Shown here piece by piece: positions 3,101 to 64,000 of a stretch of DNA of 64,000 nucleotides. The first letter of the stretch is position 1. Every line of letters starts with the position of its first letter. The notes beneath the pieces were generated by a model. That model had not been told where the DNA came from, made no database searches, and saw only the letters and a list, made by a program, of their open reading frames with translations. Both the position numbers and the translations under genes were made by a program. The stretch comes from Squalus acanthias (Eukaryota). The stretch is from NCBI GenBank assembly GCA_030390025.1, contig JASTWF010000325.1, positions 372,001 through 436,000 on the forward strand, read 5' to 3'.

Positions 3101-3814
3101 TGGTAATCTGGTCTGCTGCAAGTTGAGCGTAGTCGACTGCCAGGTATGCGGCGTGGATGGCGGGGCGGGAGAGGCAGTCGGCTACCACATTGTCTCGGCC
3201 GGAGACGTGTTGGATGTCAGTGGTGAACTCGGACACCGCTGCGAGCTGGCGCTGCTGCCTGGCGGACCAGGGGTCGGTTTTGTCATCCGTGACGAACAGT
3301 AGGGAGCCCACGTGGCCCACGGCCATCGCGGGGGCTGGTACGGGGGCGGACTTGAAAGAGCAGGGAGGTGTGCACCGTTGTGCCCTGGCGCCGAACCGTG
3401 CGTGGTAGTAACAGTGGCCCGGGTTAGTGGGGCACGAAGGCCCCGTGGGCCTGGTGACAGGCCCTTGTGGCCGCGTGCTGGATGGTGAGGGGCGCGCCCA
3501 GGCATTGGCTGCCAGGTCCGGAGTGACGTCGCGGCTGGAGTGAGCGGACAGCAGCTTGTCGGCCTCATCAGCCAGGGCTTCCAGGTTCGTGAGGCCGGAC
3601 GCCACGATCGCTGGGCAGATGCTGAGAGGGAGCTGGCGGATGAACAGCGTGCGGAAGAGGGATCCGGGTGGGCTCTCGTCGGTGAGGGAGAGGAGGTCTG
3701 ACGGTGAGGCATCACCGAGGCCTGGAAGGTCGAGGAGGTGGCAGTTTCGCTGATATGCCGAGGCCGTAAATTTTTTAAGGAGCGCTGTCTTGAGATGTGC
3801 GTACTTGCCTTCAT

Positions 3815-4107
3815 AGAAACATAGAAACTAGGAGCAGGAGTAGGCCATTCGGCCCATCGAGCCTGCTCCACCATTCAATACGATCATGGCTGATCATCCA
3901 AATCCAGTACCCTGTCCCTACTCTCTCACACAGAATCCCCATCGAGCCTGCACCGACACATATCCCACCCTGTCCCCGTAACCCCACATATTTAATTCCC
4001 CCTAACATATCCCATCCTATCCCCGTAACCCCACATATTTAATCCCCCCCTAATACTAAGGGTCAATTTATCATAGCCAAATCAACCTCACCCGCACATT
4101 TTTGGAC
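3815..4107 (-). mobile_element. 5'-truncated SINE with CR1-type 3' tail inserted in Gypsy gag
   Basis: (catagaaa)n tail plus a CR1 3' stem region. It splits the gag sequence PPDE|GKY and has TCAT duplicated at 3811-3814/4108-4111. Confidence 0.75.
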
Positions 4108-41430: not shown

Positions 41431-42028
41431 GATTATTATTGAGCCCTAGCAGATTACACAGTGAGGGCTGGTTACAGAATTATTTGAAAGGAGAATAAAA
41501 GTAAAAGAACAAAAGGCTAAACAAGATAATAAGGGAATGCTTACAGGCAGTGGTGAAGACTACTGAGGTAAACCGTTAAATAGCAGCAACGGGTCAGAGT
41601 CAGCAAACACCCTGAGCCGTTGCCTAGGTAACTCCAATAACAGACAGCCGAGTGTCCCCAATGATTGTTGGAATAGTAACTATGTTACACAGACTGGGTC
41701 TTCACAGCTTCACTGTAGCTCAGATTAAGCGGGAATGATTTCACTGCACTCAACTTCAGCTCCCAACCTGAGTAACATGGCCTGCACAAGCTGACGCCCC
41801 TCCCCGAGGTCGACTTAACACTTTGTTCCTCTTTTCACACAATTCTGTAGATAGTGGTGTCTAGACCATATTTTAGCATCTCTCTTGGACTCTTCAAGAG
41901 GGCCTGGAAGCCTGATTTGGAGAATTAGTGAGGTATTCTGTTAAATAGGGTGTTCTTTGGGGAGGGATGAGGAAGAGCTATGTCTGATTCTTGTTACTCA
42001 ACTCTTACATACGGTGCAAGTTACTCAC

Positions 42029-42135
42029 CTGGCACTGGAATCGGGCGCTGCCCGGCCCGGGCCAAACAGGCTCCATGTTCACCAGTGAAGTCAAAGGTTG
42101 CAATTTCCTTCTTGAACTCATCTTCATAATAAACC
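42029..42135 (-). CDS. CACNA1S: Internal coding exon of the CACNA1S-like gene
   Basis: tgcag/gtgagt boundaries, 107 nt, phase 2-1. VYYEDEFKKEIATFDFTGEHGACLARAGQRPIPVP (cf. Cav1.1 VHYEREF). Confidence 0.75.
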
Positions 42136-42146
42136 CTGCAATGGAG

Positions 42147-45100
42147 TGCCAGAGTCAGTCAGAGTGAGAGCGCCAGGGTCAGAGTGAGAGTGTCAGGGTC
42201 AGAGTGAGAGTGTCAGGGTCAGAGTGTCAGGGTCAGGGTCAGAGTGAGAGCGTCAGGGTCAGAGTGAGAGCGTCAGGGTCAGAGTGAGAGCGTCAGGGTC
42301 AGAGTGAGAGCGTCAGGGTCAGAGTGAGAGCGTCAGGGTCAGAGTGAGAGTGTCAGGGTCAGAGTGAGAGCGTCAGGGTCAGAGTGAGAGTGCCAGGGTC
42401 AGTCAGAGTGAGAGTGTCAGGGTCAGAGTGAGAGTGTCAGGGTCAGAGTGAGAGCGTCAGGGTCAGAGTGAGAGTGTCAGGGTCAGAGTGAGTGTGTCAG
42501 GGTCAGAGTGAGAGTGTCAGGGTCAGAGTGAGAGCGTCAGGGTCAGAGTGAGAGCGTCAGGGTCAGAGTGAGAGCGTCAGGGTCAGAGTGAGAGCGTCAG
42601 GGTCAGAGTGAGAGCGTCAGGGTCAGAGTGAGAGCGTCAGGGTCAGAGTGAGAGCGTCAGGGTCAGAGTGAGAGCGTCAGGGTCAGAGTGAGAGCGTCAG
42701 GGTCAGAGTGAGAGTGTCAGGGTCAGAGTGAGAGCGTCAGGGTCAGAGTGAGAGTGTCAGGGTCAGAGTGAGAGTGTCAGGGTCAGAGTGAGAGTGTCAG
42801 GGTCAGAGTGAGAGTGTCAGGGTCAGAGTGAGAGTGTCAGGGTCAGAGTGAGAGCGTCAGGGTCAGAGTGAGAGTGTCAGGGTCAGAGTGAGAGTGTCAG
42901 GGTCAGAGTGAGAGTGTCAGGGTCAGAGTGAGAGCGTCAGGGTCAGAGTGAGAGCGTCAGGGTCAGAGTGAGAGCGTCAGGGTCAGAGTGAGAGCGTCAG
43001 GGTCAGAGTGAGAGTGTCAGGGTCAGAGTGAGAGTGTCAGGGTCAGAGTGAGAGCGTCAGGGTCAGAGTGAGAGTGTCAGGGTCAGCGCGTTAGGGTCAG
43101 TCAGAGTGCCAGGGTCAGAGTGAGAGCGCGAGAGTCAGAGTGAGAGCGTCAGGGTCAGAGTGAGAGTGTCAGGGTCAGAGTGAGAGCGCCAGGGACAGAG
43201 TGAGAGTGTCAGGGTCAGAGAGAGAGCGTCAGGGTCAGAGTGAGAGCGTCAGGGTCAGTCAGAGTGAGAGCGTCAGGGTCAGAGTGAGAGTGTCAGGGTC
43301 AGAGTGAGAGCGTCAGGGTCAGAGTGAGAGCGCCAGGGTCAGTCAGAGTGAGAGTGTCAGGGTCAGAGTGAGAGTGTCAGGGTCAGAGTGAGAGTGTCAG
43401 GGTCAGAGTGAGAGCGCCAGGGTCAGAGTGAGCGCGTCAGGGTCAGAGTGAGAGTGTCAGGGTCAGAGTGAGAGTGAGAGTGCCGGGGTCAGAGTGAGCG
43501 CGTCAGGGCCAGAGTGAGAGTGTCAGGGTCAGAGTGAGAGAGTCAGGGTCAGAGTGAGAGAGTCAGGGTCAGAGTGAGAGCGTCAGGGTCAGAGTGAGAG
43601 CGTCAGGGTCAGAGTGAGAGCGTCAGGGTCAGAGTGAGAGTGTCAGGGTCAGAGTGAGAGTGTCAGGGTCAGAGTGAGAGCGCGAGAGTCAGAGTGAGAG
43701 CGTCAGGGTCAGAGTGAGAGTGTCAGGGTCAGAGTGAGAGTGTCAGGGTCAGAGTGAGAGCGTCAGGGTCAGAGTGAGCGCGTCAGGGTCAGAGTGAGAG
43801 TGTCAGGGTCAGTCAGAGTGAGAGTGTCAGGGTCAGAGTGAGAGCGTCAGGGTCAGTCAGAGTGAGAGTGTCAGGGTCAGAGTGAGAGTGTCAGGGTCAG
43901 AGTGAGAGTGTCAGGGTCAGAGTGAGAGCGCCAGGGTCAGAGTGAGCGCGTCAGGGTCAGAGTGAGAGTGTCAGGGTCAGAGTGAGAGTGTCAGGGTCAG
44001 AGTGAGAGTGTCAGGGTCAGAGTGAGAGTGTCGGGGTCAGAGTGAGCACGTCAGGGTCAGAGTGAGAGTGCCAGGGTCAGAGTGAGAGTGCCAGAGTCAG
44101 TCAGAGTGAGAGTGTCAGGGTCAGAGTGAGAGTGTCAGGGTCAGAGTGAGAGCGTCAGGGTCAGAGTGAGAGCATCAGGGTCAGAGTGAGAGCGCCAGGG
44201 TCAGAGTGAGAGTGTCAGGGTCAGAGTGAGAGCGCCAGGGTCAGAGTGAGAGCGCCAGGGTCAGAGTGAGAGTGTCAGGGTCAGTGTGAGAGTGTCAGGG
44301 TCAGAGTGAGAGCGCCAGGGTCAGAGTGAGAGCGCCAGGGTCAGAGTGAGAGCGTCAGGGTCAGAGTGAGAGTGTCAGGGTCAGGGTCAGAGTGAGAGTG
44401 TCAGGGTCAGTCAGAGTGAGAGTGTCAGGGTCAGTCAGAGTGAGAGTGTCAGGGTCAGAGCGAGAGCGTCAGGGTCAGAGTGAGAGCGTCAGGGTCAGAG
44501 TGAGAGTGTCAGGGTCAGAGTGAGAGTGTCAGGGTCAGAGTGAGAGTGTCAGGGTCAGAGTGAGAGTGTCAGGGTCAGAGTGAGAGTGAGAGTGTCAGGG
44601 TCAGAGTGAGAGTGTCAGGGTCAGAGTGAGAGTGTCAGGGTCAGAGTGAGAGTGTCAGGGTCAGAGTGAGAGTGTCAGGGTCAGAGTGAGAGTGAGAGTG
44701 TCAGGGTCAGAGTGAGAGTGTCAGGGTCAGAGTGAGAGCGTCAGGGTCAGAGTGAGAGTGTCAGGGTCAGAGTGAGAGTGTCAGGGTCCGAGTGAGAGTG
44801 TCAGGGTCAGAGTGAGCGCCTCAGGGTCAGTCAGAGTGAGAGTGTCAGGGTCAGAGTGAGAGCGCCAGGGTCAGAGTGAGAGCGTCAGGGTCAGAGTGAG
44901 AGTGTCAGGGTCAGAGTGAGAGTGTCAGGGTCAGAGTGAGAGTGTCAGGGTCAGAGTGAGAGTGTCAGGGTCAGAGTGAGAGCGTCAGGGTCAGAGTGAG
45001 AGTGTCAGGGTCAGAGTGAGAGCGTCAGGGTCAGAGTGAGAGTGTCAGGGTCAGAGTGAGAGTGTCAGGGTCCGAGTGAGAGTGTCAGGGTCAGAGTGAG

Positions 45101-45590
45101 CGCCTCAGGGTCAGTCAGAGTGAGAGTGTCAGGGTCAGAGTGAGAGCGCCAGGGTCAGAGTGAGAGCGTCAGGGTCAGAGTGAGAGTGTCAGGGTCAGAG
45201 TGAGAGTGTCAGGGTCAGAGTGAGAGTGTCAGGGTCAGAGTGAGAGTGTCAGGGTCAGAGTGAGAGCGTCAGGGTCAGAGTGAGAGTGTCAGGGTCAGAG
45301 TGAGAGCGTCAGGGTCAGAGTGAGAGTGTCAGGGTCAGAGTGAGAGTGTCAGGGTCAGAGTGAGAGCGCCAGGGTCAGAGTGAGAGCGTCAGGGTCAGAG
45401 TGAGAGTGTCAGGGTCAGAGTGAGAGTGTCAGGGTCAGAGTGAGAGTGTCAGGGTCAGAGTGAGAGCGCCAGGGTCAGAGTGAGAGCGTCAGGGTCAGAG
45501 TGAGAGTGTCAGGGTCAGGGTCAGAATGTCAGGGTTCAAGCGTCAGGGTCCATCTGTCAAGGCCAGAGCGTCAGGGTCAGAGGGTCACGC
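42147..45590. repeat. 20-bp minisatellite
   Basis: gtcagggtcagagtgagag(t/c) units. Confidence 0.97.
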
Positions 45591-45820
45591 AGTTCCCTGT
45601 AGGGTCAATACTCTTTAAATGATCATTGAGACAATGCAAAATCAGGGGCTGACACATTCCCTTTAAGAAACTTGGTCAACAGAATCCTCCATTACTACCG
45701 GCCTCCCACCAATACGTCCAATAGGATGACCTCTCCCAAGTATCCCATCCCCAATTAGCAACTTATTAAGGAGGCCAGGGATGAATTCCCTGATCCACAG
45801 GAAGGAGGGAACATTCTTAC

Positions 45821-45843
45821 TGCTCTGGGATCGAATCCACAGT
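45821..45843 (-). CDS. Candidate 23-nt micro-exon (alternative acceptor would start the exon at 45925)
   Basis: tgctgttttcag acceptor and gtaaga donor. TVDSIPE+CA ends in phase 2, compatible with exon 42135. No homology support. Confidence 0.3.
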
Positions 45844-46017
45844 CTGAAAACAGCAGCGTAGACACATCACTGCGCTCAGCATCCAAGCTCCAATGGAGCC
45901 AGCGTCGATCTCTCCACTCACTGCCCTACAGGTGCTGAAAGTAGCTACTTCCCTAAACGTAGAGTCTGTACCCCAATCCGAACACCAGTCATTCCTGGTG
46001 CCAGAGCCCAGCTGGAG

Positions 46018-46858
46018 CTCTGACCCCGGTTCGCCCTGACCCCGGCTCCCCCTGACCCCGGCTCACCCTGACCCCGGCTCCCCCTGACCCCGGCTCCCCC
46101 TGACCCCGGCTCCACCTGACACCGGCTCCCCCTGACACCGGCTCCCCCTGACCCCGGCTCCCCCTGACCCCGGCTCCCCCAGACCCCGGCTCCCCCAGTG
46201 CCCGGCTCCCCCTGACCCCGGCTCCCCCTGACCCCGGCTCCCCCTGACCCCGGCTCCCCCTGACCCCGGCTCCCCCTGACCCCGGCTCCACCTGACACCG
46301 GCTCCCCCTGACACCGGCTCCCCCTGACCCCGGCTCCCCCTGACCCCGGCTCCCCCAGACCCCGGCTCCCCCAGTGCCCGGCTCCCCCTGACCCCGGCTC
46401 CCCCTGACCCCGGCTCCCCCTGACCCCGGCTCCCCCTGACCCCGGCTCCCCCTGACCCCGGCTCCACCTGACACCGGCTCCCCCTGACACCGGCTCCCCC
46501 TGACCCCGGCTCCCCCTGACCCCGGCTCCCCCAGACCCCGGCTCCCCCAGTGCCCGGCTCCCCCTGACCCCGGCTCCCCCTGACCCCGGCTCCCCCTGAC
46601 CCCGGCTCCCCCTGAGCCCGGCTCCCCCTGACCCCGGCTCCCCCTGACCCCGGCTCCCCCAGAGCCCGGCTCCCCCTCACCCCGGCAAGCCCTGACCCTG
46701 GCTCCCCCAGTGCCCGGCTCCCCCTGACCCCGGCTCCCCCTGACCCCGGCTCCCCCTGACCCCGGCTCCCCCTGACCCCGGCTCCCTCTGACCCCGGCTC
46801 CCCCAGTGCCCGGCTCCCCCTGACCCCGGCTCCCCCTGACCCCGGCTTTCTCTGAGCC
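46018..46858. repeat. 15-bp C-rich minisatellite
   Basis: ctgaccccggctccc(cc) units. Confidence 0.97.
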
Positions 46859-46960
46859 CAGCACGTTGCTCAGCTGTCCGGATCACTGAAAGTGAGGGAT
46901 TATTCAAACAGCAAAATCAAACACCCCAACATTTCAGGGACCAAGTCAGCGCGTAGCATC

Positions 46961-49900
46961 TGTGTGAAAGGGTGGGGAGTTGGATGGGGTAGTGTGTTTG
47001 TGAAAGGGTGGGGAGTTGGATGGGGTACCGTGTGTGTGTGAGGGTGGGGAGTTGGATGGGGTACAGTGTGTGAAAGGGTGGGGAGTTGGATGGAGTACAG
47101 TGTGTGTGAAAGGGTGGGGAGTTGGATGGGGTACAGTGTGTGTGAAAGTGTGGGGAGTTGGATGGGGTACAGTGTGTGTGAAAGGGTGGGGAGTTGGATG
47201 GGGTACAGTGTGTGTGAGAGGGTGGGGAGTTGGATGGGGTACAGTGTGTGTGAAAGAGTGGGGAGTTGGATGGGGTACAGTGTGTGTGAGGGTGGGGAGT
47301 TGGATGGGGTACAGTGTGTGTGAAAGGGTGGGGAGTTGGATGGGGTCCAGTGTGTGTGAGGGTGGGGAGTTGGATGGGGTACAGTGTGTGTGAGAGGGTG
47401 GGGAGTTGGATGGGGTACAGTGTGTGTGAGAGGGTGGAGAGTTGGATGGGGTACAGTGTGTGTGAAAGAGTGGGGAGTTGGATGGGGTACAGTGTGTGTG
47501 AGGGTGGGGAGTTGGATGGGGTACAGTGTGTGTGAAAGGGTGGGGAGTTGGATGGGGTACAGTGTGTGTGAAAGGGTGGGGAGTTGGATGGTGTACAGTG
47601 TGTGTGTGAGGGTGGGGAGTTGGATGGGGTACAGTGTGTGTGTGAGGGTGGGGAGTTGGATGGGGTACAGTGTGTGTGTGAAAGGGTGGGGAGTTGGATG
47701 GTGTACAGTGTGTGTCAAAGGGTGGGGAGTTGGATGGGGTACAGTGTGTGTGAGGGTGGGGAGTTGGATGGGGTACAGTGTGTGTCAAAGGGTGGGGAGT
47801 TGGATGGGGTAGTGTGTGTGTGAAAGGGTGGGGAGTTGGATGGGGTACAGTGTGTGTGAGGGTGAGGAGTTGGATGGGGTGCAGTGTGTGTCAAAGGGTG
47901 GGGAGTTGAATGGGGTACAGTGTGTGTGAGGGTGGGGAGTTGGATGGGGTACAGTGTGTGTGAGGGTGGGGAGTTGGATGGGGTACAGTGTGCGTGAAGG
48001 TGGGGAGTTGGATGGGGTACAGTGTGTGTGAGGGTGGGGAGTTGGATGGGGTACAGTGTGTGAAAGGGTGGGGAGTTGGATGGGGTAGTGTGTGTGTGAA
48101 AGGGTGGGGAGTTGGATGGGGTACCGTGTGTGTGTGAGGGTGGGGAGTTGGATGGGGTACAGTGTGTGAAAGGGTGGGGAGTTGGATGGAGTACAGTGTG
48201 TGTGAAAGGGTGGGGAGTTGGATGGGGTACAGTGTGTGTGAAAGGGTGGGGAGTTGGATGGGGTACAGTGTGTGTGAGGGTGGGGAGTTGGATGGGGTAC
48301 AGTGTGTGTGAAAGGGTGGGGAGTTGGATGGGGTACAGTGTGTGTGAAAGGGTGGGGAGTTGGATGGTGTACAGTGTGTGTGTGAGGGTGGGGAGTTGGA
48401 TGGGGTACAGTGTGTGTGTGAGGGTGGGGAGTTGGATGGGGTACAGTGTGTGTGTGAAAGGGTGGGGAGTTGGATGGGGTACAGTGTGTGAAAGGGTGGG
48501 GAGTTGGATGGTGTACAGTGTGTGTCAAAGGGTGGGGAGTTGGATGGGGTACAGTGTGTGTGAGGGTGAGGAGTTGGATGGGGTACAGTGTGTGTCAAAG
48601 GGTGGGGAGTTGGATGGGGTACAGTGTGTGTGAGGGTGAGGAGTTGGATGGGGTACAGTGTGGGTCAAAGGGTGGGGAGTTGGATGGGGTACAGTGTGTG
48701 TGAGGGTGAGGAGTTGGATGGGGTGCAGTGTGTGTCAAAGGGTGGGGAGTTGGATGGGGTACAGTGTGTGTGAGGGTGGGGAGTTGGATGGGGTACAGTG
48801 TGTGTGAGGGTGGGGAGTTGGATGGGGTACAGTGTGCGTGAAGGTGGGGAGTTGGATGGGGTACAGTGTGTGTGAGGGTGGGGAGTTGGATGGGGTACAG
48901 TGTGTGAAAGGGTGGGGAGTTGGATGGGGTACAGTGTGTGAAAGGGTGGGGAGTTGGATGGGGTACAGTGTGTGTGAAAGGGTGGGGAGTTGGATGGGGT
49001 ACAGTGTGTGTGAAAGGGTGGGGAGTTGGATGGGGCACAGTGTGTGTGTGAGGGTGGGGAGTTGGATGGGGTACAGTGTGTGTGAAAGGGTGGGGAGTTG
49101 GATGGGGTACAGTGTGTGTGAAAGGGTGGGGAGTTGGATGGGGTACAGTGTGTGTGAGAGGGTGGGGAGTTGGATGGGGTACAGAGTGTGTGAGGGTGGG
49201 GAGTTGGATGGGGTACAGTGTGTGTGAGGGTGGGGAGCTGGATGGGGTACAGTGTGTGTGAGGGTGGGGAGTTGGATGGGGTACAGTGTGTGAAAGGGTG
49301 GGGAGTTGGATGGGGTACAGTGTGTGTGTGAGGGTGGGGAGTTGGATGGGGTACAGTGTGTGAGAGGGTGGGGAGTTGGATGGGGTACAGTGTGTGTGAG
49401 AGGGTGGGGAGTTGGATGGGGTACAGTGTGTGTGAGGGTGGGGAGTTGGATGGGGCACAGTGTGTGTGAAAGGGTGGGGAGTTGGATGGGGTACAGTGTG
49501 TGTGAAAGGGTGGGGAGTTGGATGGGGTACAGTGTGTGTGAGAGGGTGGGGAGTTGGATGGGGTACAGTGTGTGTGAGGGTGGGGAGTTGGATGGGGTAC
49601 AGTGTGTGAAAGGGTGGGGAGTTGAATGGGGTACAGTGTGTGTGAAAGGGTGGGGAGTTGGATGGGGTACAGTGTGTGTGAGAGGGTGGGGAGTTGGATG
49701 GGGCACAGTGTGTGTGTGAGGGTGGGGAGTTGGATGGGGTACAGTGTGTGTGAAAGGGTGGGGAGTTGGATGGGGTACAGTGTGTGTGAAAGGGTGGGGA
49801 GTTGGATGGGGTACAGTGTGTGTGAGAGGGTGGGGAGTTGGATGGTGTACAGTGTGTGTGAGGGTGGGGAGTTGGATGGGGTACAGTGTGTGTGAGGGTG

Positions 49901-51082
49901 GGGAGCTGGATGGGGTACAGTGTGTGTGAGGGTGGGGAGTTGGATGGGGTACAGTGTGTGAAAGGGTGGGGAGTTGGATGGGGTACAGTGTGTGCGTGAG
50001 GGTGGGGAGTTGGATGGGGTACAGTGTGTGAGAGGGTGGGGAGTTGAATGGGGTACAGTGTGTGTGAGAGGGTGGGGAGTTGGATGGGGTACAGTGTGTC
50101 TGAAAGAGTGGGGAATTGAATGGGGTACAGTGTGTGTGTGAAAGGGTGGGGAGTTGGATGGTGAACAGTGTGTGTGAAAGGGTGGGGAGTTGGATGGGGT
50201 ACAGTGTGTGAGAGAGGGTGGGGAGTTGGATGGTGTACAGTGTGTGTGAAAGGGTGGGGAGTTGGACGGGGTAAAGTGTGTGTGTGTGTGGGGAGTTGGA
50301 TGGGGTACAGTGTGTGTCAAAGGGTGGGGAGTTGGATGGGGTACAGTGTGTGTGAGGGTGAGGAGTTGGATGGGGTACAGTGTGTGTCAAAGGGTGGGGA
50401 GTTGGATGGGGTACAGTGTGTGTGAGGGTGGGGAGTTGGATGGGGTACAGTGTGTGTGAGGGTGCGGAGTTGAATGGGGTACAGTGTGTGCGTGAAAGGG
50501 TGGGGAGTTGGATGGGGTACAGTGTGTGTGTGAGGGTGGGGAGTTGGATGGGGTACAGTGTGTGAAAGGGTGGGGAGTTGGATGGGGTACAGTGTGTGTG
50601 TGAGGGTGGGGTGTTGGACGGGGTACAGTGTGTGTGTGTGAGGGTGGGGAGTTGGATGGGGTACAGTGTGTGTGAGGGTGGGGAGTTGGATGGGGTACAG
50701 TGTGTGTGAGGGTGGGGAGCTGGATGGGGTACAGTGTGTGTGAGGGTGGGGAGTTGGATGGGGTACAGTGTGTGAAAGGGTGGGGAGTTGGATGGGGTAC
50801 AGTGTGTGTGTGAGGGTGGGGAGTTGGATGGGGTACAGTGTGTGAGAGGGTGGGGAGTTGGATGGGGTACAGTGTGTGTGAGAGGGTGGGGAGTTGGATG
50901 GGGTACAGTGTGTCTGAAAGAGTGGGGAGTTGAATGGGATACAGTGTGTGTGTGAAAGGGTGGGGAGTTGGATGGTGAACAGTGTGTGTGAAGGGTGGGG
51001 AGTTGGATGGGGTACAGTGTGTGAGAGAGGGTGGGGAGTTGGATGGTGTACAGTGTGTGTGAAAGGGTGGGGAGTTGGAGGG
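46961..51082. repeat. ~32-38-bp G-rich minisatellite
   Basis: gggtggggagttggatggggtacagtgtgtgtga(aa) units running into the gap. Confidence 0.97.
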
Positions 51083-51282
51083 NNNNNNNNNNNNNNNNNN
51101 NNNNNNNNNNNNNNNNNNNNNNNNNNNNNNNNNNNNNNNNNNNNNNNNNNNNNNNNNNNNNNNNNNNNNNNNNNNNNNNNNNNNNNNNNNNNNNNNNNNN
51201 NNNNNNNNNNNNNNNNNNNNNNNNNNNNNNNNNNNNNNNNNNNNNNNNNNNNNNNNNNNNNNNNNNNNNNNNNNNNNNNNNN
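51083..51282. other. Assembly gap
   Basis: 200 N. Confidence 1.
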
Positions 51283-52235
51283 CCCCACCCTCACCCACAA
51301 CCCCACCCTCATCCTCACACTTACCCTCACCTCACCCCACCCTCATCCTCACCCTCACCCTCACCCCTACCCTCACCCTCACCCTCACCCCCAACCTCAA
51401 CCTCACCCTCACCCCCACCCTCACCCTCACCCCCACCCTCACCCTCACTCTCACCCTCACCCCACCCTCACCTCACCCCACCGCACCCCCACCCAACCTC
51501 ACCCCCACATCACCCCACCCTCACCCTCGCCCTCACCCCACCCTCACCCCCACCCTCACCCTCACCTCACCCTGACCCCACCCCCACCCTCACCCCACCC
51601 CCACCCTCACCTCCACCCCCACCCTCACCCAAACCCTCACCCTCACCCTCACCCCCACCCTCACCCCCCACCCTCACCCACAACCCCACCCTCATCCTCA
51701 CACTTACCCTCACCTCACCCCACCCTCATCCTCACCGTCACCCTCACCCCTACCCTCACCCTCACCCTCATCCCCAACCTCAACCTCACCCTCACCCCCA
51801 CCCTCACCCTCACCCCCACCCTCACCCTCACTCTCACCCTCACCCAACCCTCACCTCACCCCACCCCACCCCCACCCAACCTCACCACCACCTCACCCCA
51901 CCCTCACCCTCACCCTCACCCCACCCTCACCCCCACCCTCACCCTCACCCCCACCCTCACCCTCACGCTCACCCTCACCCAACCCTCACCCCACCCCACC
52001 TCCACCCAACCTCACCCCCACCTCACCCCACCCTCACCCTCACCCTCACCCCACCCTCACCCCCACCCTCACCCTCACCTCACCCTGACCCCACCCCCAC
52101 CCTCACCCCACCCCCACCCTCACCTCCACCCCCACCCTCACCCAAACCCTCACCCCCACCCTCACCCTCACCTCACCCTGTCCCCCCCTCACCTCCACCC
52201 CCACCATCACCCTCACCCCACCCCCACCCTCACTC
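51283..52235. repeat. Degenerate (CACCCT)n repeat
   Basis: caccct/cacccc hexamers. Confidence 0.95.
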
Positions 52236-52855
52236 CCCTTGACCTCTAAGGGACACACATTTACTTTCGCTAATCTCTTCCTTTTTACATACCTCTGGCC
52301 TTTACAATCTGTTTTTATGTTTCTTGCTACTTTACTCTCATATTTTATTTTCTCTCGCTTTATCAATTTCTTGGCCCTCCTTTTCTGAATTCGAAAATCC
52401 TCCCAATCCCCAGACTTACTACTCTTCCTTTGATCTAATACTATCTTTAACTTCTCTTGTTAGCCATGGTTGGACCACTTTTCCCACAGGGTTCTTATTC
52501 CTTAAGGAAATGTATATTTGTCATGAATTATGAATTAATTCTTTAAATGTTTGCTTTTGCTTATTTACCATCATATCTTTTAATCTACTTTCCCAATCTA
52601 CCTCAGCCAGCTCACCCCCTCATACATGCGTAGTTTGCTTTGTTCAGAATTAAGACCCTAGTTTCGGACTTAACTAAATCACTCCCAAACTCAATATAAA
52701 ATTCTTTCATATTATGATCACTCTTCCCCGAGGATCCTTTAGTATAAGGTTATTAATTAAACCTATATCATTGCACAATACTAGATCTAAAATAGTCAGT
52801 TCCATAGTTGGTTCCTTGACATACTGATCTCAAAAACTATCTTGAATGCATTCCA
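52236..52855 (-). mobile_element. CR1 ORF2 internal fragment
   Basis: IKREKIKYESKVARNIKTDCK..RYVKRKRLAKVNV.PL. Confidence 0.8.
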
Positions 52856-52859
52856 TGAA

Positions 52860-53775
52860 CACATATGTGCAGCCATCAAGAAATGTGCAGCCAATGGGAT
52901 ATGGACAGCTAATGGGATAAGTGCAGCCAAGGAGATATCTGCAGCCAACAAGATATATGCAGCCAATGGGATAGTTGCAGCCAATGGGATAGTTGCAGCC
53001 AATGAAATATTTGCAGCCAATGAGATATGTACAGCCAGTGGGCTGTGTGCAGCCAGTGCAGTCAGTGGGACATGTTTATACAGTCCAGCTAGTGGGACAC
53101 TTTCAGCCAGTGCGACATGTGCAGCCAATGGAACATGTGTGGCCAGTGCAGCCAGTGAGACATTTTTAGTCAGTGCAGCCAGTGGTACATGTTTAACCAG
53201 TGCAGACAGTGGGATATGTGTAGCCATTACAGCCAGTGGTGTGTAGCCGGTGCAGTCATTGGGATGTGTGCATCCTGTGCAGTCAGTGTGACATGTGAAT
53301 CCAGTGCAGCCAGTGGAACATGTGTAGCCAGTGCAGCCAGTGGGGCATGTATAGCCAGTGCAACAAATGCAGCCAGTGCAGTCATTGGGACATGTGTATG
53401 CAGTGCAGCCAGTGGCATATGTATAGCCAATACAGTTAATGTGACATGTGAAGCCAATGGGTCGTGTGTAGCCAATGGGATATGTACAGCCAATGAGTCA
53501 TGTGTAGCCAGTGCTGCCAGTGGAACATGTGTCATAATTGCAGCCAGTGGTTTGTAGACGGTGCAGTCAAAGGGACATGTGCATCCAATGCAGCCAGTGA
53601 GCCAAGTGTAGCTGATGCAGTTGCGGGGACATGTATAGCCAATGAAATCAGCAGGACATGTGGAGCCAGTACAGTCAGTGGGACATGTGTTAGCCAGTGT
53701 CACATATGTAGCCAGTGGGAGCTGTGCAGCCAGTGAGGGATGTGTTAGCCGGTACAGTCAGTGGAACATGTGCAG
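52860..53775. repeat. Degenerate 18-bp satellite
   Basis: atgtgcagccagtgggac-like units, same family as 63213-64000. Confidence 0.85.
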
Positions 53776-53776
53776 C

Positions 53777-53890
53777 ATCTCTACCTCTCGTTCCTCCTTT
53801 AAGGCACTCCTTAAAACCTACCTCTTTTGGTCATCTGCCCTAATATCTCTTTATGTGGCTCAGTGTTAAATTTTGTTTGATAACACTCCA
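53777..53890 (+). mobile_element. L2 3' fragment, truncated at the provirus junction
   Basis: tttaaggcactccttaaaacctacctc...tttgtttgataacactcc matches the L2 at 11941-12100 in reverse. Confidence 0.7.
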
Positions 53891-54999
53891 TGCTCCTCCC
53901 TTGAGTCTGTGAACAGGAGCAAATCATCCACGTACTGCACTATCTGATTGGGCTGACTAAACTCCTTTAAACTTCCTGCCATACACTGATGGAAAATACT
54001 GGGGCTGTTGTGGAAACCTTGTGGCAAACAGTCCCATGTGTACTGTTGTCCTTTGAAAGTAAAGGCAAACTTGTACTGGTCCTCTCGCCGCAACGGGATG
54101 GACCAAAAACCGTTCGAGATATCCAGCACCGTGAACGTGGTCGCGGACGCTGGGATACTCCCTATTAGGTCAGCAACTGCTGCTACTGTGGGCGCGCAGG
54201 CGGGGATGTTACTGTTAAGGACTCTGTAGTCCACCGTGGCCCTCCACGAATTATCCGGCTTCCTCACCGGCCATAATGGGGAGTTCACGTGTGTGGCTAT
54301 CGGTCTCAACACGCCCTGCTGCACCAATGAGGACATTGCTGTCTCCATGTCGGGTTCTGCTTCTTTGGGGAAGTTATACTGCTTTTGGGGCCGGGTCATG
54401 GGGTCCCCATCTACGCTGACCTCAAACCCGGTAACCCTTCCACAATCATGCTTGTGGGTTGCAAACGCGTGCATATTATCTGACACGTACGTTTGCATGC
54501 CCGTTGGGACATCCGCGACCATCAGCCCGAGGTCGTAACCTCCAGATGGCTTCATGGTACACAGGGCCCCTTTTCCTTCCTTCCCTGGGATTACAGCTAC
54601 CTTGCCTTTCCCACCCTTGGCTCCCCAGAGACAGTGATTCCTAAGGTCCACGAGGATCCCGTGTTCCGCTAGGAGATCCGATCCGAGGATATCTCTCCCA
54701 CCCCCCTCTTGCCATTTCGTCAGTATGCACTTTCATGTGGTGTGGAGTGCTCCTAAATGAATGGAGAGCGGAATGGAGAACGCGCCAGCCTGCTCTTTTC
54801 CCGTGAACCCCGCTAATGTGAATGGGACCTTGGTAGACAGTGGTGAGTCAAAGGGGCTATCTGTATGGATCACGGTGCATGAAGCTCCCGTATCCAACAA
54901 GTAACTACCCTTCTGCTTCTCTACCTCCATCTCTACCAGGGGTCTTTTCCACGCATCATAGCTGAGCGGACACAGGTAAATGGGCTGCGCAGGCTTTAG
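53888..54999 (-). pseudogene. pol: aspartic protease and RT N-terminal half
   Basis: LLDTGASCT, ILGSDLL, FATHKHDCG, PQKQY, NSPLWPVRKPDNSWRATVDYR, LDISNGFWSIPL, LPQGFHNSP, QYVDDLL. One in-frame TGA at 54733-54735; truncated after DSREEH. Confidence 0.92.
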
Positions 55000-56823
55000 T
55001 CATTGGGTACCGGTGGACGGGGTTGTGGCATCTGTGGGGCCGGTAACGACTGCCACTTTCCCGTGCGAAATCATAAGGGACCGCATGGCTCCCAACATTG
55101 ATTCTATCGCATCGGGATGGATAGGCACACCAGCTCCTTTCTCAGAGACAGGCGCTTGGGTTCGGACTGCGGGAGCTTTTTCCCTGGAATCCTTCCAGGG
55201 ATTCCTGCAGTTTTTACGCCAGTGACCTGTCTTCCCGCACCCGTAACAAACACCACTGGTTTGTGGGGCGCGATTTCCCTCCTGATGCCACTCTTTCTGA
55301 GCCGGAGCTGCGTGCTTTGCCTCATGCACCTTTCCCTTAAGGGGACGCGCTCCCGTGCTCCTAGTGTTCTGATACCCTATGGTGAGTCGATTCAGGACAG
55401 ACTCCTCCGTGGTGTCGGGGTTAGTGGGATCAAACCACGCTCTGGCCTGCTCCCTGATGGCTGGCAAGCTGTTGGCTACCATGCACCTGAGCCAATGAGC
55501 TTTCCCGGCGCCGTGCAGATAGCTGCGCTCTGGCGCACCTGGGCAGCTACGCTGGTATACTGGCCACAGTCTGTCGGCAAAAACCCGCAGGGGTTCTCCC
55601 TCCATCTGTACGGTCTGACCCAATCTGACGAACGGACCCTCGTCATCCGCCCTTAACACTTCTAGGACCTCGTCCCGTAACTCCTCATAGGTTTTATTTC
55701 CCTTCTTGCTCTCATCGGAGAGACACTGAAGGATCGAGCTATCTAAAGAAAACAGCAACATTTTGGTCTTTTCCTCATCGTCGCAGCCATTAATCGCTGC
55801 GGTCTGTTCTACTTCCCTAAAATGTACGGAAGGGTCTTCTGACTCGGACAGCTTCCGTACATGGCTAATCATTGCTCTCAGCTGGTGTGAGCTGTGGGGC
55901 AATACAAGTTGGTTCAGAACATCCCCGTCTGCCCCATCTGCCCCATTCGGGCCTCTCTTATGACCTCGGACCGGACACATCAGTCCTGGTCTCGACGCTA
56001 CCTCCGGGGATTGTCCTACCTCGGGAACCTTCTTCTCTATTTCCACCACTTCCTCCCTTACCCAGGTTGCCGAATAGCTGGGTGGCGCGGAGGGCATAGT
56101 GGTAGATACCTCTTCTGCTTTTTCCGGTAGGGATTTGGGGAATTCCCTACCCACCTGTGGCTGGCTCGCTGACGGGCTGATGAGACACACCAAGCCGTTT
56201 GCCTTATTCAGGGACTCCCTTAGGTTCTCTATCTCCCTCTGGCAAACACTGTGGTCGGCTCCCTCATGCCTATCCTCGAGAGCCATCTTGTATGCCGCCC
56301 TAACTCCCCTCAAGCTTTCTTCCTGGGCTTTTATCTGGTTAGCTAGGCGGATACACCGTTCTCTAATCCTTCCCTCGTTTAATTTTGCTTCCATGACCTG
56401 ACATTCTAGGTAATCAATTTTAGCCTCGTGGTGGTTGGCTACTATTTGGCGTTCCTGATGCAACGCATTCAATGATGCGATGAGTTTCTGTCCTCCCGTG
56501 ACCTTTTCCTCCATCTCAGTTTCCAATCCCCTGATCTGAGCTGCCTGTGCTGCAATGACCTGGTCCGAAAGTTGGACTTGCTTCTTGTACCACATCAGCC
56601 AGACCGCTTTCTCTACCGACTTCTTATGATCTTTACTGCCTGTCCATTTGATGGCGGCGTCTAGCGGACGCTTATCCATCAGTAGGTCACATATCCACTT
56701 TTTGGTTAAGTTAACCTTCCCAAACACATAGTCGGCTACCTTATCATCCATCACATTTCGCCTATTCAAACCAGGGTCTAAAACATTACTCTCCTGCTGC
56801 CAGAGTCCTGCCGCGGTCGCCAT
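55000..56823 (-). CDS. Intact gag ORF (coiled coil, capsid-like region, CCHC knuckle)
   Basis: About 607 open codons from ATG 56823, with CYGCGKTGHWRKNC. Directly upstream of and in frame with the protease. Confidence 0.88.
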   Translation of the reverse strand: MATAAGLWQQESNVLDPGLNRRNVMDDKVADYVFGKVNLTKKWICDLLMDKRPLDAAIKWTGSKDHKKSVEKAVWLMWYKKQVQLSDQVIAAQAAQIRGLETEMEEKVTGGQKLIASLNALHQERQIVANHHEAKIDYLECQVMEAKLNEGRIRERCIRLANQIKAQEESLRGVRAAYKMALEDRHEGADHSVCQREIENLRESLNKANGLVCLISPSASQPQVGREFPKSLPEKAEEVSTTMPSAPPSYSATWVREEVVEIEKKVPEVGQSPEVASRPGLMCPVRGHKRGPNGADGADGDVLNQLVLPHSSHQLRAMISHVRKLSESEDPSVHFREVEQTAAINGCDDEEKTKMLLFSLDSSILQCLSDESKKGNKTYEELRDEVLEVLRADDEGPFVRLGQTVQMEGEPLRVFADRLWPVYQRSCPGAPERSYLHGAGKAHWLRCMVANSLPAIREQARAWFDPTNPDTTEESVLNRLTIGYQNTRSTGARPLKGKVHEAKHAAPAQKEWHQEGNRAPQTSGVCYGCGKTGHWRKNCRNPWKDSREKAPAVRTQAPVSEKGAGVPIHPDAIESMLGAMRSLMISHGKVAVVTGPTDATTPSTGTQ

Positions 56824-57182
56824 TTTCTGTAAGGGGGCGTGTCTCAGACGGTGCTGGTGCGAGGTTAGGCCTTCGTTGCCTATACTATTGCTTGCTCTGG
56901 TCTCCGGCCAGCCTTTTTGCAATAAGCACCTGTGAGTGGTTCGACCCACTCGCCCTTACGGTTCTAACACTGGACTTAGGTGCAGGGAGCAGTAATGCAG
57001 AGAAAAACTCAAATAGACCCGGTTGAATAGTACAAAATGGAAATCTTTATTGCATGGCATCTAAAATCATGAAATACATGTCATAGGCGCAAATCAAAGA
57101 TAGTACAAGTATACATACATTCATAAAGCTTGGTCTATGGAAATGGAGAACACACGGCACATCGTAAAAAGGGGAACACATT

Positions 57183-58075
57183 GGGGTAAAAATTCAGTTG
57201 GTTGCGTCTCCCGTTAGCGCCTTAAGAGGGCGCTAATGGGGCGCAAAGCCGCTAACGCCTGGGCGCGGCGATGTTTGCGCCGCTCGGGAACTTAACTAGA
57301 GATTGTGCGGCGGCGCTAAACTTTACCGCTGCGACCACCTGCGCGCGCAGATTGTGACGTCATTCCATGGTGCAACGCCCTTGTGGCGCCCCGGAGCAGA
57401 AATTGAGTGGCGCCCCCTGCCTTACCGCCTGGCGCATCCAACGACCAGAAGACTGGAACGCTATCAATCGCTGTGGGGCTGGGGGGGGCGCTATTTAAAG
57501 GGGGCCTCTTCCTGTCTTTTATTGTTGGTGGCATTTTTGAACTACGCATTCTGAGAGAGAGAGGGAGAGACTCCTGGAGAGATTCAACGTTGTGTGAAGG
57601 AGTTTTGGGTACTGAGCAGCACTTTGCAGGTTCATTTTGATTTGCCATTCCTTGTATCGATTTAGCAGAGACTGTGGGAGCTGCACTCTGAGCTCTTTGC
57701 CTGGTACTCTCCATTGTTCTTTCCAGCACATTTGATGTGCAAGTCTCTCCAGGCCGAGATTCAAGGCTGCAATGAACAGGATGTGGATGGAAAGCAAGAT
57801 TAACCATCCCCTTTAAGAACTGGCCCGTGCCATTGTGTGTGTGTTCCATTGCTGACTGACATTACATGAGCTTCGCCAGCGCTCTGAGTTAGCGCCTCAC
57901 TCCTTGGCCTTTGCGCCTTAAGACAGGTGTGCAGCGCCTGATTTAGCGCTCCACTCACCTCCCGGGGCGGTAAAAGTGAAGTTTCCAGTCAGTGCCGATA
58001 ATTAGCGCCAGGCGCTAATATTTGCGTCCAGACGATATTTGCGCCCCAAATGGGGCGCGACCTAATTTTTCCCCC
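57183..58075. mobile_element. Non-autonomous PIF/Harbinger element, copy 2, inside the provirus LTR
   Basis: Colinear with 1223-2115; TIRs GGGGTAAAAATT / AATTTTTCCCCC; TSD ATT (57180-57182, 58076-58078). Confidence 0.92.
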
Positions 58076-58408: not shown

Positions 58409-59228
58409 ATTTTTGGGCGCGGTCGGGGTTCACTGACCGTGGCGGCACGTGGAACTTCTTCTCGCCTTCTTCTCGTCTTCTTCTTGTCTCGTCTCCTCGG
58501 GCCTCCGGGTCCAGACACCGTTTACCGACACTCGGGATGGTGTACCCTGTTACTTGCCCTTGTCGGGGCGGCTCGTACCGATTGAGCTCCACCCAACACT
58601 CGAATAACCAACCAGTACGGCTAAGAGTCAAGAGTCAACAAAGTCCAGAGAGAAAATCAAGAGCCCACAAGTCAAGCGAGTTCATGAAGAGGCAAGCGAA
58701 ATAAGAGAGGGATGGACATTTGTTCTCTATAGTTATAGTGATGTGTCCACTTATCTCCCGCTCAAATCTTAATGTTTGTCCTTTGTGTAATATTTGGCGC
58801 TCAAAACTCCCAGCATGGGGCGATTATCTTCTTTACCGGGTTTCAGTAGCACCTGAAACTGGCCAACTATCCGTTAATGTTTTCCCCATTGTTGACCCAG
58901 CCAGGATGTGTATGAATCGTCTCCTCGACTGGTTTTGGGGGCCCCCGAATACCGACTTAATCACCCGTCAATGTCTCTCTCATTGTAGAGCCGGGGGGGT
59001 ATTTGTGTATTGATGTGTCTGGATGGGCCTTCGATTGCCCAGTACAATGATCCTTACTGTGCATAGGAAAACGATTCCAGCACTTATATCATTGCTATTG
59101 TTCACAATGCAACGGGTTGCATCCTGTCTTTATCAATTTTTACCAAGTATGATCCAATCTTATACTGAATGTATATTCGACGCCATCTTGTCTGCCCACT
59201 GTGTTTCTGGAAGCTTCTGCCACGATGC

Positions 59229-59997
59229 CGAGAACTTTGTGGATTACTCATTTAGTGAGTTGAACACACCGCGGGTAAAGGCTAGGTCAGACAGTAAATG
59301 GGTGACCAAGAGGCAGGGCAATATCAGGAAGGTAGTGCAGGAGTCCCCTGCGGTCGTCTCCCTCCAAAACAGATATACCGTTTTGGATACTGTTGGGGGA
59401 AATGACCTACCAGGGGAAGGCACCAGCAGCCAGGTTCATGGCACCATGGCTGGCTCTGCTGCACAGCAGGGCGGGAAAAAGAGTGGTAGAGCTATAGTGA
59501 TAGGGGACTCAATTGTAAGGGGAATAGACAGGAGTTTCTGTGGCCGCAACCGAGATTCCAGGATGGTATGTTGCCTCCCTGGTGCAAGGGTCAAGGATGT
59601 CTCGGAGCGGCTGCAGAACATTCTGGAAAGGGAGGGTGAAGAGCCAGCTGTCGTGGTGCATGTAGGTACCAACGATATAGGTAAAAAGCAGGAAGAGGTT
59701 CTACAAGCAGAATTTAGGGAGCTAGGAGCTAAATTGAAAAGTAGGACCTCAAAGGTAGTAATCTCTGGGTTGCTACCAGTGCCACGTGCTAATCAGAGTA
59801 GCATGAACAGGATAGCGAGATTAAATACGTGGCTTGAGCAGTGGTGCAGGAGGGAGGGATTCAAATACCTGAGGCATTGGAACCAGTTCTGGGGGAAGTG
59901 GGACCTGTACAAAAGGGACGGTCTGCACTTGGGCAGGACTGGAACCGATGTCCTCGGGGTAATATTTGCTAAGGCAGTTCGGGAGGATTTAAACTAA
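59229..59997 (+). CDS. CR1 ORF1 C-terminal SGNH/GDSL esterase domain
   Basis: IVIGDSIVRG, CLPGARV, HVGTND, DGLHL motifs. Confidence 0.9.
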
Positions 59998-60044
59998 TAT
60001 GGCAGGGGAATGGGAACCTATGTAGCGAAACAGGGGGAAGTAAT

Positions 60045-62983
60045 ATGCAGTCAGAAACAAATGTTAGAAGGGTGAGAAACAATAAGGGAAATCCGAGTAA
60101 ACAAAGGCAAGAAACACAAAGGGCCATACTAAATCATAAGTCTAAAAGGACAAAGGGTGTTAATAAAACAAGCCTAAAGGCTCTGTGTCTTAATGCAAGG
60201 AGTATCCGTAATAAGGTGGATGAATTGACTGTGCAAATTGATGTTAACGGATATGATGTGATTGGGATTACAGAGACGTGGCTCCAGAACAATCAAGGCT
60301 GGGAACTGAATATCCAGGGGTATTCAACATTCAGGAAGGATAGAATAAAAGGAAAAGGGGGTGGGGTAGCATTGCTGGTTAAAAAGGAGATTAATGCAAT
60401 AGCTAGGAAGGACATTAGCTTGGAGGATGTGGAATCAATATGGGTTGAGCTGCAGAACACCAAAGGGCAGAAAACGTTAGTGGGGGTTGTGTACAGACCT
60501 CCAAACAGTAGTAGTGAGGTGGGGGAGGGTATGAAACAGGAAATCAGAGTTGCATGCAAAAAAGGCGCTGCAGTTATCATGGGTGACTTTAATATGCATA
60601 TAGATTGGGCTACTCAAACTGGAAGCAATACGGTGGAGGAGGATTTCCTGGAGTGTTTAAGGGATGGTTTCCTAAACCAATATGTTGAGGAACCAACTAG
60701 AGGGGAGGCCATCCTGGACTGGGTGTTGTGTAATGAGGAAGGACTAATCAGCAATCTTGTGGTGCGAGGCCCCTTGGGGAAGAGTGACCATAGTATGGTG
60801 GAGTTCTACATTAGGATGGAGAAGGAAACAGTTAAGTCAGAGACCATGGTCCAGAACTTAAATAAGGGCAACTTTGAGGGTATGAGGCGTGAATTGGCGA
60901 GGTTAGATTGGCAAGCGATATTTAAGGGGTTATCAGTGGAAGGGCAATGGCAGACATTTAGAGATCGCATGGATGAACTACAACAATTGTACATCCCTGT
61001 CTGGCGTAAAAATAAAAAAGGGAAGGTGGCTCAACCATGGCTAACAAGGGAAATCAGGGATAGTATTAAAAGCGAGGAAGTGGCATACAAATTGGCCAGA
61101 AGTAGCAGCAAACCCGGGGACTGGGAGAACTTCAAAACTCAGCAGAGGAGGACGAAGGGTTTGATTAGGGCAGGGAAAATAAAATATGAAAGGAAGCTTG
61201 CGGAGAACATTAAAACGGACTGCAAAAGCTTCTATAAATATGTAAAAAGAAAGAGGTTAGTAAAAACAAACGTAGGTCCCCTGCAGTCAGAAACAGGGGA
61301 AGTCATAATGGGGAACAAAGAAATGGCAGATCAATTGAACAAGTACTTTGGTTCGGTGTTTACTGTGGAGGACACAAACAACCTTCCAGAAATAAAAGGG
61401 GTCAGAGGATCTGGTAAGAGGGAGGAGCTGAGGGAAATCCTTATCAGTCGGGAAAAGGTGTTGGGGAAATTGATGGGACTGAAGGCTGATAAATCCCCAG
61501 GGCCTGATGGTCTGCATCCCAGAGTACTGAAGGAGGTGGCCTTGGAAATAGTGGATGCATTGACGATCATTTTCCAACATTCCTTAGACTCTGGATCAGT
61601 TCCAAAGGAGTGGAGGGTGGCTAATGTAACCCCTCTTTTTAGAAAAGGAGGGAGGGAGAAAGCAGGGAATTATAGACCGGTCAGCCTGACATCGGTGGTG
61701 GGTAAAATGATGGAATCAATTATTAAAGATGTCATAACAGACCATTTGGAAAGTGGCGACATGATAGGTCCAAGTCAGCATGGATTTGTGAAAGGGAAAT
61801 CATGCTTGACAAATCTTCTGGAATTTTTTGAGGATGTTTCCAATAGGGTGGACGGGGGGGGGAACCAGTAGATGTGGTGTATTTGGACTTTCAGAAGGCC
61901 TTCGACAAGGTCCCACACAAGAGATTGGTGTGCAAAGTTAAAGCACATGGGATTGGGGGTAATGTGTTGACGTGGATTGAGAACTGGTTGGCACACAGGA
62001 AACAAAGAGTAGGAGTAAATGGGTACTTTTCAGAATGGCAGGCAGTGACCAGCGGGGTACCGCAGGGTTCGGTGCTGGGGCCCCAGCTGTTTACATTATA
62101 TATTAATGATTTGGACGAAGGGATTAATTGTAATATCTCCAAATTTGCGGATGACACTAAATTGGGAGGCAGTGTGAACAATGAGGAGGATGCTAGGAGG
62201 CTACAGAGTGACTTGGACAGGTTGGGTGAATGGGGAAATGTATGGCAGATGAAGTACAATGTGGATAAATGTGAGGTTATCCACTTTGGTGGTAAAAATA
62301 GGGAGGCAGACTATTACCTGAATGGTGGCAGATTAGGGAAAAGGGAGGTGCAACGAGACCTGGGCGTCATGGTACATCAGTCACTGAAGGTGGGAAGGCA
62401 AGTGCAGCAGGCAGTCAAGAAAGCAAATGGCATGATGGCCTTCATAGCAAGGGGATTTGAGTACAGGAGTAGGGAGGTGATGCTACAGTTGTACAGGGCC
62501 TTGGTGAGGCCACACCTGGAGTATTGTGCGCAGTTTTGGTCTCCTAACTTGAGGAAGGACATTCTTGCTATTGAGGGAGTGCAACGAAGGTTCACTAGAT
62601 TGATTCCTGGGATGGCCAGACTGACATATCAAGAAAGACTGGATCAATTGAACTTGTATCCTCTGGAGTTCAGAAGAATGAGGGGGGATCTTATAGAGAC
62701 GTTTAAAATCCTGACTGGTTTAGACAAATTAGATGCGGGCAGAATGTTTCCAATGTTAGGGAAAACTAAAACCAGGGGTCACAGTCTAAGGATAAAGGGG
62801 AAGCCATTTAAGACTGAGATGAGGAGGAACTTCTTCACCCAGAGAGTGGTGAATCTGTGAAATTCTCTACCACAGAAGGTTGTTGAGGCCAGTTCGCTAA
62901 ATATATTCAAAAGGGAGTTAGATATAATACTCACAACTAGGGGGATCAAGGGGCATGGCGAGAAAGCAGGAATGGGGTACTGA
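60045..62983 (+). pseudogene. CR1 ORF2 (APE + RT)
   Basis: [52 protein letters not shown]. One frameshift in the G run at ~61853-61862 and a TGA at 62858-62860. Confidence 0.93.
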
Positions 62984-63212
62984 GGTAGCATGTTCAGCCA
63001 TGAACGCATTGAATGGCGGTGCAGGCTCGAAGGACCGAATGGTCTACTCCTGCACCTATTTTCTATGTTTCTATGTTTCTATGATGCGCGGCGGCCATTT
63101 TACAGGCTTCTGTGTCCTTTATTATCAGGACAGCATTTCGTTTAATAAAACTGATCACACGAATCTGCTTCTCTTATGTTATTTTGAATCGCGATAATTG
63201 CGAAACTTTACA

Positions 63213-64000
63213 CATGTGCAGCCATTGAGACATGTGCAGCCATTGGGACATGTGCAACCATTGAGACATGTGCAGCCATTGAGACATGTGCAGCCATTGG
63301 GACATGTGCAACCATTGAGACATGTGCAGCCATTGAGACATGTGCAGCCAGTTTAGTCAGTTTGACATGTGAATCCATTGGGGATGTGCAGCCAGTGGGA
63401 GATGTACAGCCACTGGGAGATGTGCAGCCAGTGGGAGATGTGCAGCCACTGGGAGATGTGCAGCCAGTGGGAGATGTGCAGCCAGTGGGAGATGTGCAGC
63501 CACTGGGAGATGTACAGCCACTGGGAGATGTGCAGCCAGTGGGAGATGTGCAGCCAGTGGGACATGTGCAGCCACTGGGACATGTGAAACCAGTGGGAGA
63601 TGTGCAGCCAGTGGGAGATGTGCAGCCAGTGGGACATGTGCAGCCACTGGGACATGTGAAACCAGTGGGAGATGTGCAGCCAGTGGAAGATGTGCAGCCA
63701 GTGGGACATGTGCAGCCACTGGGACATGTGCAGACAGTGGGAGATGTGCAGCCACTGGGACATGTGCAGCCAGTGGGACATGTGCAGCCACTGGGAGATG
63801 TGCAGCCAGTGGGACATGTGCAGCCAGTGGGAGATGTGCAGCCAGTGGGACATGTGCAGCCAGTGGGACATGTGAAACCAGTGGGAGCTGTGCAGCCACT
63901 GGGACATGTGAAACCAGTGGGAGATGTGCAGCCAGTGGGACATGTGAAACCAGTGGGAGATGTGCAGCCAGTGGGACATGTGCAGCCAGTGGGACATGTG
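63213..64000. repeat. 18-bp satellite
   Basis: atgtgcagcca(g/c)tggga(g/c) units running to the window end. Confidence 0.97.

Follow-up and report, generated by a model that had tools for sequence, protein, structure and literature searches.

UGA-CUA as a candidate stop-codon readthrough signal at the gag–pol junction of a SnRV-like endogenous retrovirus in Squalus acanthias

Retroviruses that keep gag and pol in one reading frame, separated by an in-frame stop codon, are known among the gamma- and epsilonretroviruses and from snakehead retrovirus (SnRV), SSSV, ZFERV and RMEV, according to the available sections of a 2026 review (PMC13517186). Those sections give UGAAGA, UGACGA and UGAAGU as retroviral UGA contexts, and they attribute UGA-CUA, a type II readthrough hexamer for which 3′ structure is only conditionally needed, to alphaviruses and a triatovirus; they also state that the type I signal is absent from animal viruses. 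In HEK-293T cells, UGA-CUA alone yields 1.5% readthrough and CUAG genes reach about 31%, as reported in the accessible part of PMC4132726. The excerpted text of a preprint (bioRxiv 10.64898/2026.07.14.738498) adds that, of 765 variants, all but CUAA lowered readthrough, this exception being in MAPK10, one of three genes, and that glutamine codons before the stop vary widely in effect. SnRV-like endogenous retroviruses (ERVs) belong to clade Huo (Xu et al. 2018, PMC6001957) and are already known from the elephant shark (PMC4422223), as the consulted passages of both papers indicate. Lokiretroviruses were found in none of the 6 chondrichthyan genomes screened by Wang and Han (2021, PMC7947760). 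Here we describe a SnRV-like element from S. acanthias whose Pol was very probably made by type II readthrough of a UGA codon.

The window, a 64,000-nucleotide stretch of the S. acanthias assembly, contains the 5′ half of an endogenous retrovirus, lying entirely on the minus strand; this copy is defunct, and no host function is evident for it. Its gag ORF (55000–56823) encodes 607 amino acids plus the stop. The N-terminal part is coiled-coil-like, the middle is probably capsid-like, and one CCHC knuckle lies at about 55248–55207 (Pfam, E = 0.0012, under the curated cut-off); homologues were found. PSAP and PPSY motifs overlap in Gag at 56094–56074 (minus strand), and we take them to resemble late-domain motifs. 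The segment immediately upstream (56824–57182, minus strand) is likely to be a 5′ leader or LTR remnant, with an AATAAA at 57051–57046.

The gag frame ends in ACC CAA TGA and runs on in the same frame as CTA AAG CCT (55008–54991, with TGA at 55002–55000). The initial annotation had read this junction, and the 23 open codons that follow, correctly, leaving the minus strand unstated. These codons (54931–54999, minus strand) run up to an ATG at 54930; an open run of this length has a chance of about 0.33 for random codons by hand arithmetic and is unremarkable. Past that ATG the pol frame stays open until a second in-frame TGA (54733–54735, minus strand) within the protease, and then continues through reverse transcriptase (RT) to about 53881. 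The protease domain (54658–54951, minus strand; Pfam RVP, E = 3.3e-5) has its catalytic DTG at 54894–54886, 36 codons past the gag stop, and the RT core (53881–54420, minus strand; Pfam RVT_1, E = 7e-26) carries YVDD at 53934–53923. Gag and protease–RT therefore occupy one frame with a single stop between the CCHC knuckle and the DTG, which is a readthrough-type layout. Searches of the window turned up neither RNase H, integrase nor env sequence belonging to the element, nor its 3′ LTR. A full-length Pol relative that is 81% identical (P0008) matches the window only at 54930–53881, bar an unrelated integrase near 3,000, and precomputed Pfam matches place in it the tether, RNase H and integrase that are absent from the window copy.

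A decayed copy that carries another nonsense codon invites the reading that TGA 55002–55000 is also a chance lesion, in a gag–pol ORF that was once fused. Ten of 24 lokiretrovirus consensus entries are headed as fused gag–pol genes, and fused layouts are therefore reported among fish retroviruses. Against this reading, homologous Gags down to 34% identity stop at the same place: those at 59, 57, 58 and 47% identity all terminate with Gln at a shared alignment column, and the one at 34% extends a column further and does not end on Gln. The skate Rhinoraja longicauda supplies the best match (58%), which by itself would point to a cartilaginous fish as the probable host; three of the four members of the Rhinoraja cluster stop at the shared column, the fourth being a 334-amino-acid early-ending form. 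Among 8,000 longer candidates scored, no full-length fused Gag–Pol was found, with one partial match at 18% coverage, which is weak evidence.

Four runs, from four studies and under three organism labels, were taken from the 20 listed, and their contigs, aligned over 54560–55260, supplied related copies at the DNA level; one run (X1) is possibly the source sample of the window itself. At the second TGA, 54735–54733, all depth in all four runs (4, 1, 3 and 5 contigs) has a different letter, and P0008 reads through the protease uninterrupted at that point, so this stop is a lesion private to the window copy. At the junction, no variant in CAA-TGA-CTA (55005–54997) is among the best 40 of 96 variant entries, within which a majority change would have ranked, and minor variants are possible; no indels are listed among the variants of the four runs. 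Invariance of these 9 nt is by itself not significant (P = 0.27–0.6 at the observed variant density), and the evidence for a kept stop lies instead in the contrast with the internal TGA: a true lesion differs in all depth, whereas the junction stop has no well-supported variant under any of the three organism labels. Third codon positions account for 16 of the 24 pol variant places among those listed (p = 0.0009), and the pol frame was therefore under selection. In three runs a more distant subfamily, about 80% identical, can be aligned over 54916–55005, from the protease start up to the CAA codon, and diverges thereafter, which is suggestive only. A metagenome scan with the junction peptide returned 139 candidate stretches, none of them confirmed. 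Judged by these copies and homologues, the junction stop is a feature of the family and not a lesion of one copy; chance nonsense is largely refuted and hardly credible. The initial annotation had proposed comparing the two stops in other copies, and the outcome it anticipated, UGA-CUA kept and the TGA at 54733 not, is what the four runs and the Gag homologues show as far as these data allow.

The candidate readthrough site (54996–55005, minus strand) comprises CAA, UGA (55002–55000) and, in the window copy, CUAA. UGA followed by CUA satisfies the Beier–Grimm definition of type II (UGA then CUA or CGG). In the four runs, the base at +7 is G in 88, 98, 97 and 99% of summed contig depth (22, 7, 25 and 12 contigs), so that related copies read UGA-CUAG; CUAA is the window copy's own tetramer, and most related copies have CUAG. 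Across both strands of the window, 13 of 2,808 TGA triplets are followed by CTA, the junction included, and 2 of 2,808 by CTAG. The description of UGA-CUA as a leaky context in the initial annotation agrees with its type II status (PMC13517186) and its 1.5% readthrough in isolation (PMC4132726), within the consulted text of both sources. Selenocysteine decoding of the junction UGA is unlikely.

In an active virus, one genomic RNA would have encoded both Gag and Pol in a shared frame interrupted by a lone UGA. The majority of ribosomes would halt at the UGA and release Gag; at a few percent of them a near-cognate tRNA would insert an amino acid, giving Gag–Pro–Pol. The leak would be set chiefly by the local UGA-CUA(G) context, a Beier–Grimm type II signal that can act without 3′ structure. 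The in-frame layout, the family-wide position of the stop, the CUAG context of related copies and selection on the pol frame are direct observations; that ribosomes read through the stop, how often they did so, with which residue and independently of structure, is inferred. Seven folds around both stops revealed no 3′ structure beyond that of shuffled sequences (z = −0.95 to +0.76). The fold of the 100 nt past the junction, which the initial annotation had suggested as a check, likewise predicts none (z = +0.76); this null result says little, because the MoMLV control element misses the threshold in the same test (z = −0.51).

Where Pol begins bears on a second explanation, which we regard as the main rival: a foamy-style arrangement in which Pol is translated separately, from a spliced mRNA starting at AUG 54930, with the UGA serving simply as the end of gag. 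This AUG is flanked by G at −3 and +4, presumably a good Kozak context, and P0008 retains it. A CAG at 54964–54962 follows a stretch of 72% pyrimidines, and among solved structures the best match is a foamy Pol. However, AUG 54930 falls within the protease profile. In P0001 the RVP match begins at residue 18 and the first Met is residue 25, so the last 7 of the 23 post-stop codons match the start of the RVP profile upstream of the first AUG. The same AUG lies just 12 codons before the catalytic Asp, compared with about 20–24 in six foamy loci, and after the CAG two out-of-frame AUGs precede it. Among the joints and loose ends listed, a listing that leaves out 46 loose ends, none fits the acceptor, the RNA status of the data being a guess; one contig spans the junction gap-free in a run guessed to be RNA, which we do not count as evidence. 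A spliced pol mRNA would also leave the CUAG context unexplained, and the tree places the RT apart from the foamy clade (99/100). On balance we consider a spliced pol mRNA unlikely.

A third possibility is that ribosomes reach pol by termination–reinitiation at an AUGA, or by shifting frame in the vicinity of the stop. An out-of-frame AUG (A at 55003) does overlap the gag stop, and late gag contains two heptamers of the G-GGA-AA type (55279 and 55184). The overlapping AUG is out of frame with pol, however, and opens a frame of 15 codons (55003–54956, minus strand) that is then shut; and pol is in frame 0 with gag, so a single shift cannot reach it. We therefore hold these routes to be very improbable, more so than splicing. 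The junction stop lies 36 codons from the catalytic Asp, within the 27–41 codons seen in 8 selected in-frame relatives (a set that leaves out L018 and L019, in which gag and pol are in different frames, and takes L007 and L003 as its only gamma-like loci). Production of Pol by readthrough is the best explanation because of the context data, the start of the protease profile, the stop-to-Asp spacing and the out-of-frame AUG. The view of the initial annotation that Pol is made by UGA suppression is thus supported as an interpretation, and we think it highly probable.

We then considered which retroviruses the element resembles. Over 170 amino acids of the RT core, identity is highest among named viruses, at 48% and with motifs in common, to a locus (L001) that is SnRV itself: its RT string equals the SnRV row in the accessible supplement of PMC7947760, and its junction is UAG-GGC. 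Identity is 38–42% to six foamy loci and 34–37% to four gamma/epsilon-like loci. In a 37-row RT tree, the window copy and P0008 pair (100/100) and lie apart from both the foamy clade (99/100) and the gamma/epsilon clade (100/97), and the backbone that carries SnRV has no supported clade joining the element, with the bootstrap not settled; a 60-row tree agrees. The foamy clade in these trees consists of six loci, fish foamy-like elements being absent, and the trees have no lokiretrovirus rows because a loki-motif scan of viral contigs gave 0 matches. The element is accordingly best described as being of SnRV-like (class III/clade Huo) grade, a label of grade only, with clade membership unsupported by the tree.

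Three other assignments were rejected. A gamma- or epsilonretrovirus is ruled out by the position of the RT outside that clade (100/97), and a foamy virus (clade Tu) by the RT (99/100) and the Met-to-Asp distance of 12. Lokiretroviruses and Odin elements are set apart by the RT signature CPFGYxNSPAEF/IYVDD and a long protease–RT spacer, both present in lokiretroviruses and both absent here in a by-eye comparison with the published loki sequences available (PMC7947760). The element thus belongs to neither the gamma/epsilon nor the loki group that the initial annotation had cited for readthrough; its nearest named relative is SnRV.

The window contains several further repeats. An 893-bp MITE-like insert, bounded by terminal inverted repeats and flanked by a 3-bp target duplication, lies upstream of gag (57183–58075), and a second copy, 97% identical, is found at 1223–2115; both have GGGG...CCCC ends and 3-bp target duplications. 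The 97% repeat near 57,183 had been a candidate for a second LTR and was rejected as this MITE-like insert. A transposase remnant at 1–1089, which we assume to be Harbinger-like, adjoins the MITE-like copy at 1223–2115, and an unrelated gypsy-like element is represented at 2221–3827 (minus strand) by fragments that include an integrase core. Upstream of the provirus is a near-complete LINE (59014–62860, plus strand) with endonuclease and RT frames, presumably CR1-like. Many minisatellite arrays (12–48-bp units) occur in 42000–53800 and 63200–64000, including an 18-bp array just past the truncated provirus end, and an assembly gap of Ns lies near 51,100.

If Pol was made as we propose, retroviral gag–pol readthrough would extend to UGA-CUA(G), a signal that needs no known pseudoknot. 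The junction is also a short sequence directly suited to reporter testing. Gene callers split such genes. The skate Gags P0003, P0006 and P0007 are annotated as stand-alone uncharacterized proteins, and the related frog and coelacanth Pols P0011, P0013, P0014 and P0015 as host 'NYNRIN-like' proteins. Screens that drop ORFs with internal stops may mis-score elements of this kind.

Two further SnRV-like elements, distinct from one another, were observed in metagenome loci. One (L014:2915–2923 and L015:2467–2475) joins a gag frame of 601 codons to an in-frame pol frame of 1,180 codons through UAG-CAA-UUA, a perfect type I (tobacco mosaic virus) signal. The other (L016:159–167 and L017:1280–1288) has an in-frame UAG-CGC junction and an env-sized ORF downstream. 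Taken with the loki sequences, the type I junction suggests that fish retroviruses have repeatedly swapped signals and kept the stop. We lean, by a small measure, towards the broader view that the deep-branching retroviruses of fish form a so far unrecognised source of readthrough signals, in which the in-frame stop is conserved and signals of types I, II and III are exchanged; in this view the element's family and, separately, many lokiretroviruses would use the UGA-CUA(G) signal of vertebrate host genes.

Lokiretroviruses provide a parallel at the junction. In the supplement of PMC7947760, read by eye and in the part available, six consensus sequences (Ofa, Dcl, Lro, Cne, Pyo and Sau) have an in-frame gag–UGA-CUA(G/A)–pol arrangement: five of the seven entries in which gag has a heading of its own (Ofa, Dcl, Lro, Pyo and Sau), plus Cne. 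CAA precedes the stop in one of the six, and the gag of Loki-Tfu ends differently. The initial annotation had stated that readthrough is described for loki and Odin elements. The terms readthrough, stop codon, suppression and frameshift have 0 mentions in the main texts of the loki (PMC7947760) and Odin (PMC9040795) papers, and no paper joining lokiretroviruses with gag–pol readthrough was found in the open-licence literature; the layout itself is present in those six loki sequences. No report of UGA-CUA at a retroviral gag–pol junction was found in the open-licence literature, a scope that excludes Repbase and the original SnRV paper, and the consulted portions of work on Troyka, frameshifting, invading ERVs and frog LTRs contain nothing on the element's junction.

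Alphavirus UGA-CUA and the vertebrate UGA-CUAG genes (AQP4, MAPK10, OPRK1, OPRL1 and MDH1) share the stop and 3′ tetranucleotide of most related copies; the candidate signal of the element differs from these type II cases in lying at a retroviral gag–pol junction. XtERV-S, a class III ERV of Xenopus, has an in-frame TGA between gag and pol for which suppression has been proposed, according to the available text of PMC8278194. MoMLV, WDSV, SSSV, ZFERV and RMEV follow the same logic, the stop lying in frame after the Gag knuckle and before the DTG of the protease, and MoMLV differs in using UAG-GGA with a pseudoknot. SnRV and the SnRV-like ERVs (clade Huo, including elephant shark CmiERV lineage I) resemble the element in that a single stop separates gag and pol in a shared frame, and the SnRV Gag is likewise coiled-coil-like with a CCHC knuckle, at a similarity that is only marginal (E = 0.009). 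The junction of SnRV is UAG-GGC (type III), whereas that of the element's family is UGA-CUA(G) (type II). Readthrough is thus known for retroviruses of this kind, and the UGA-CUA(G) signal appears to be a new variant of it for retroviruses.
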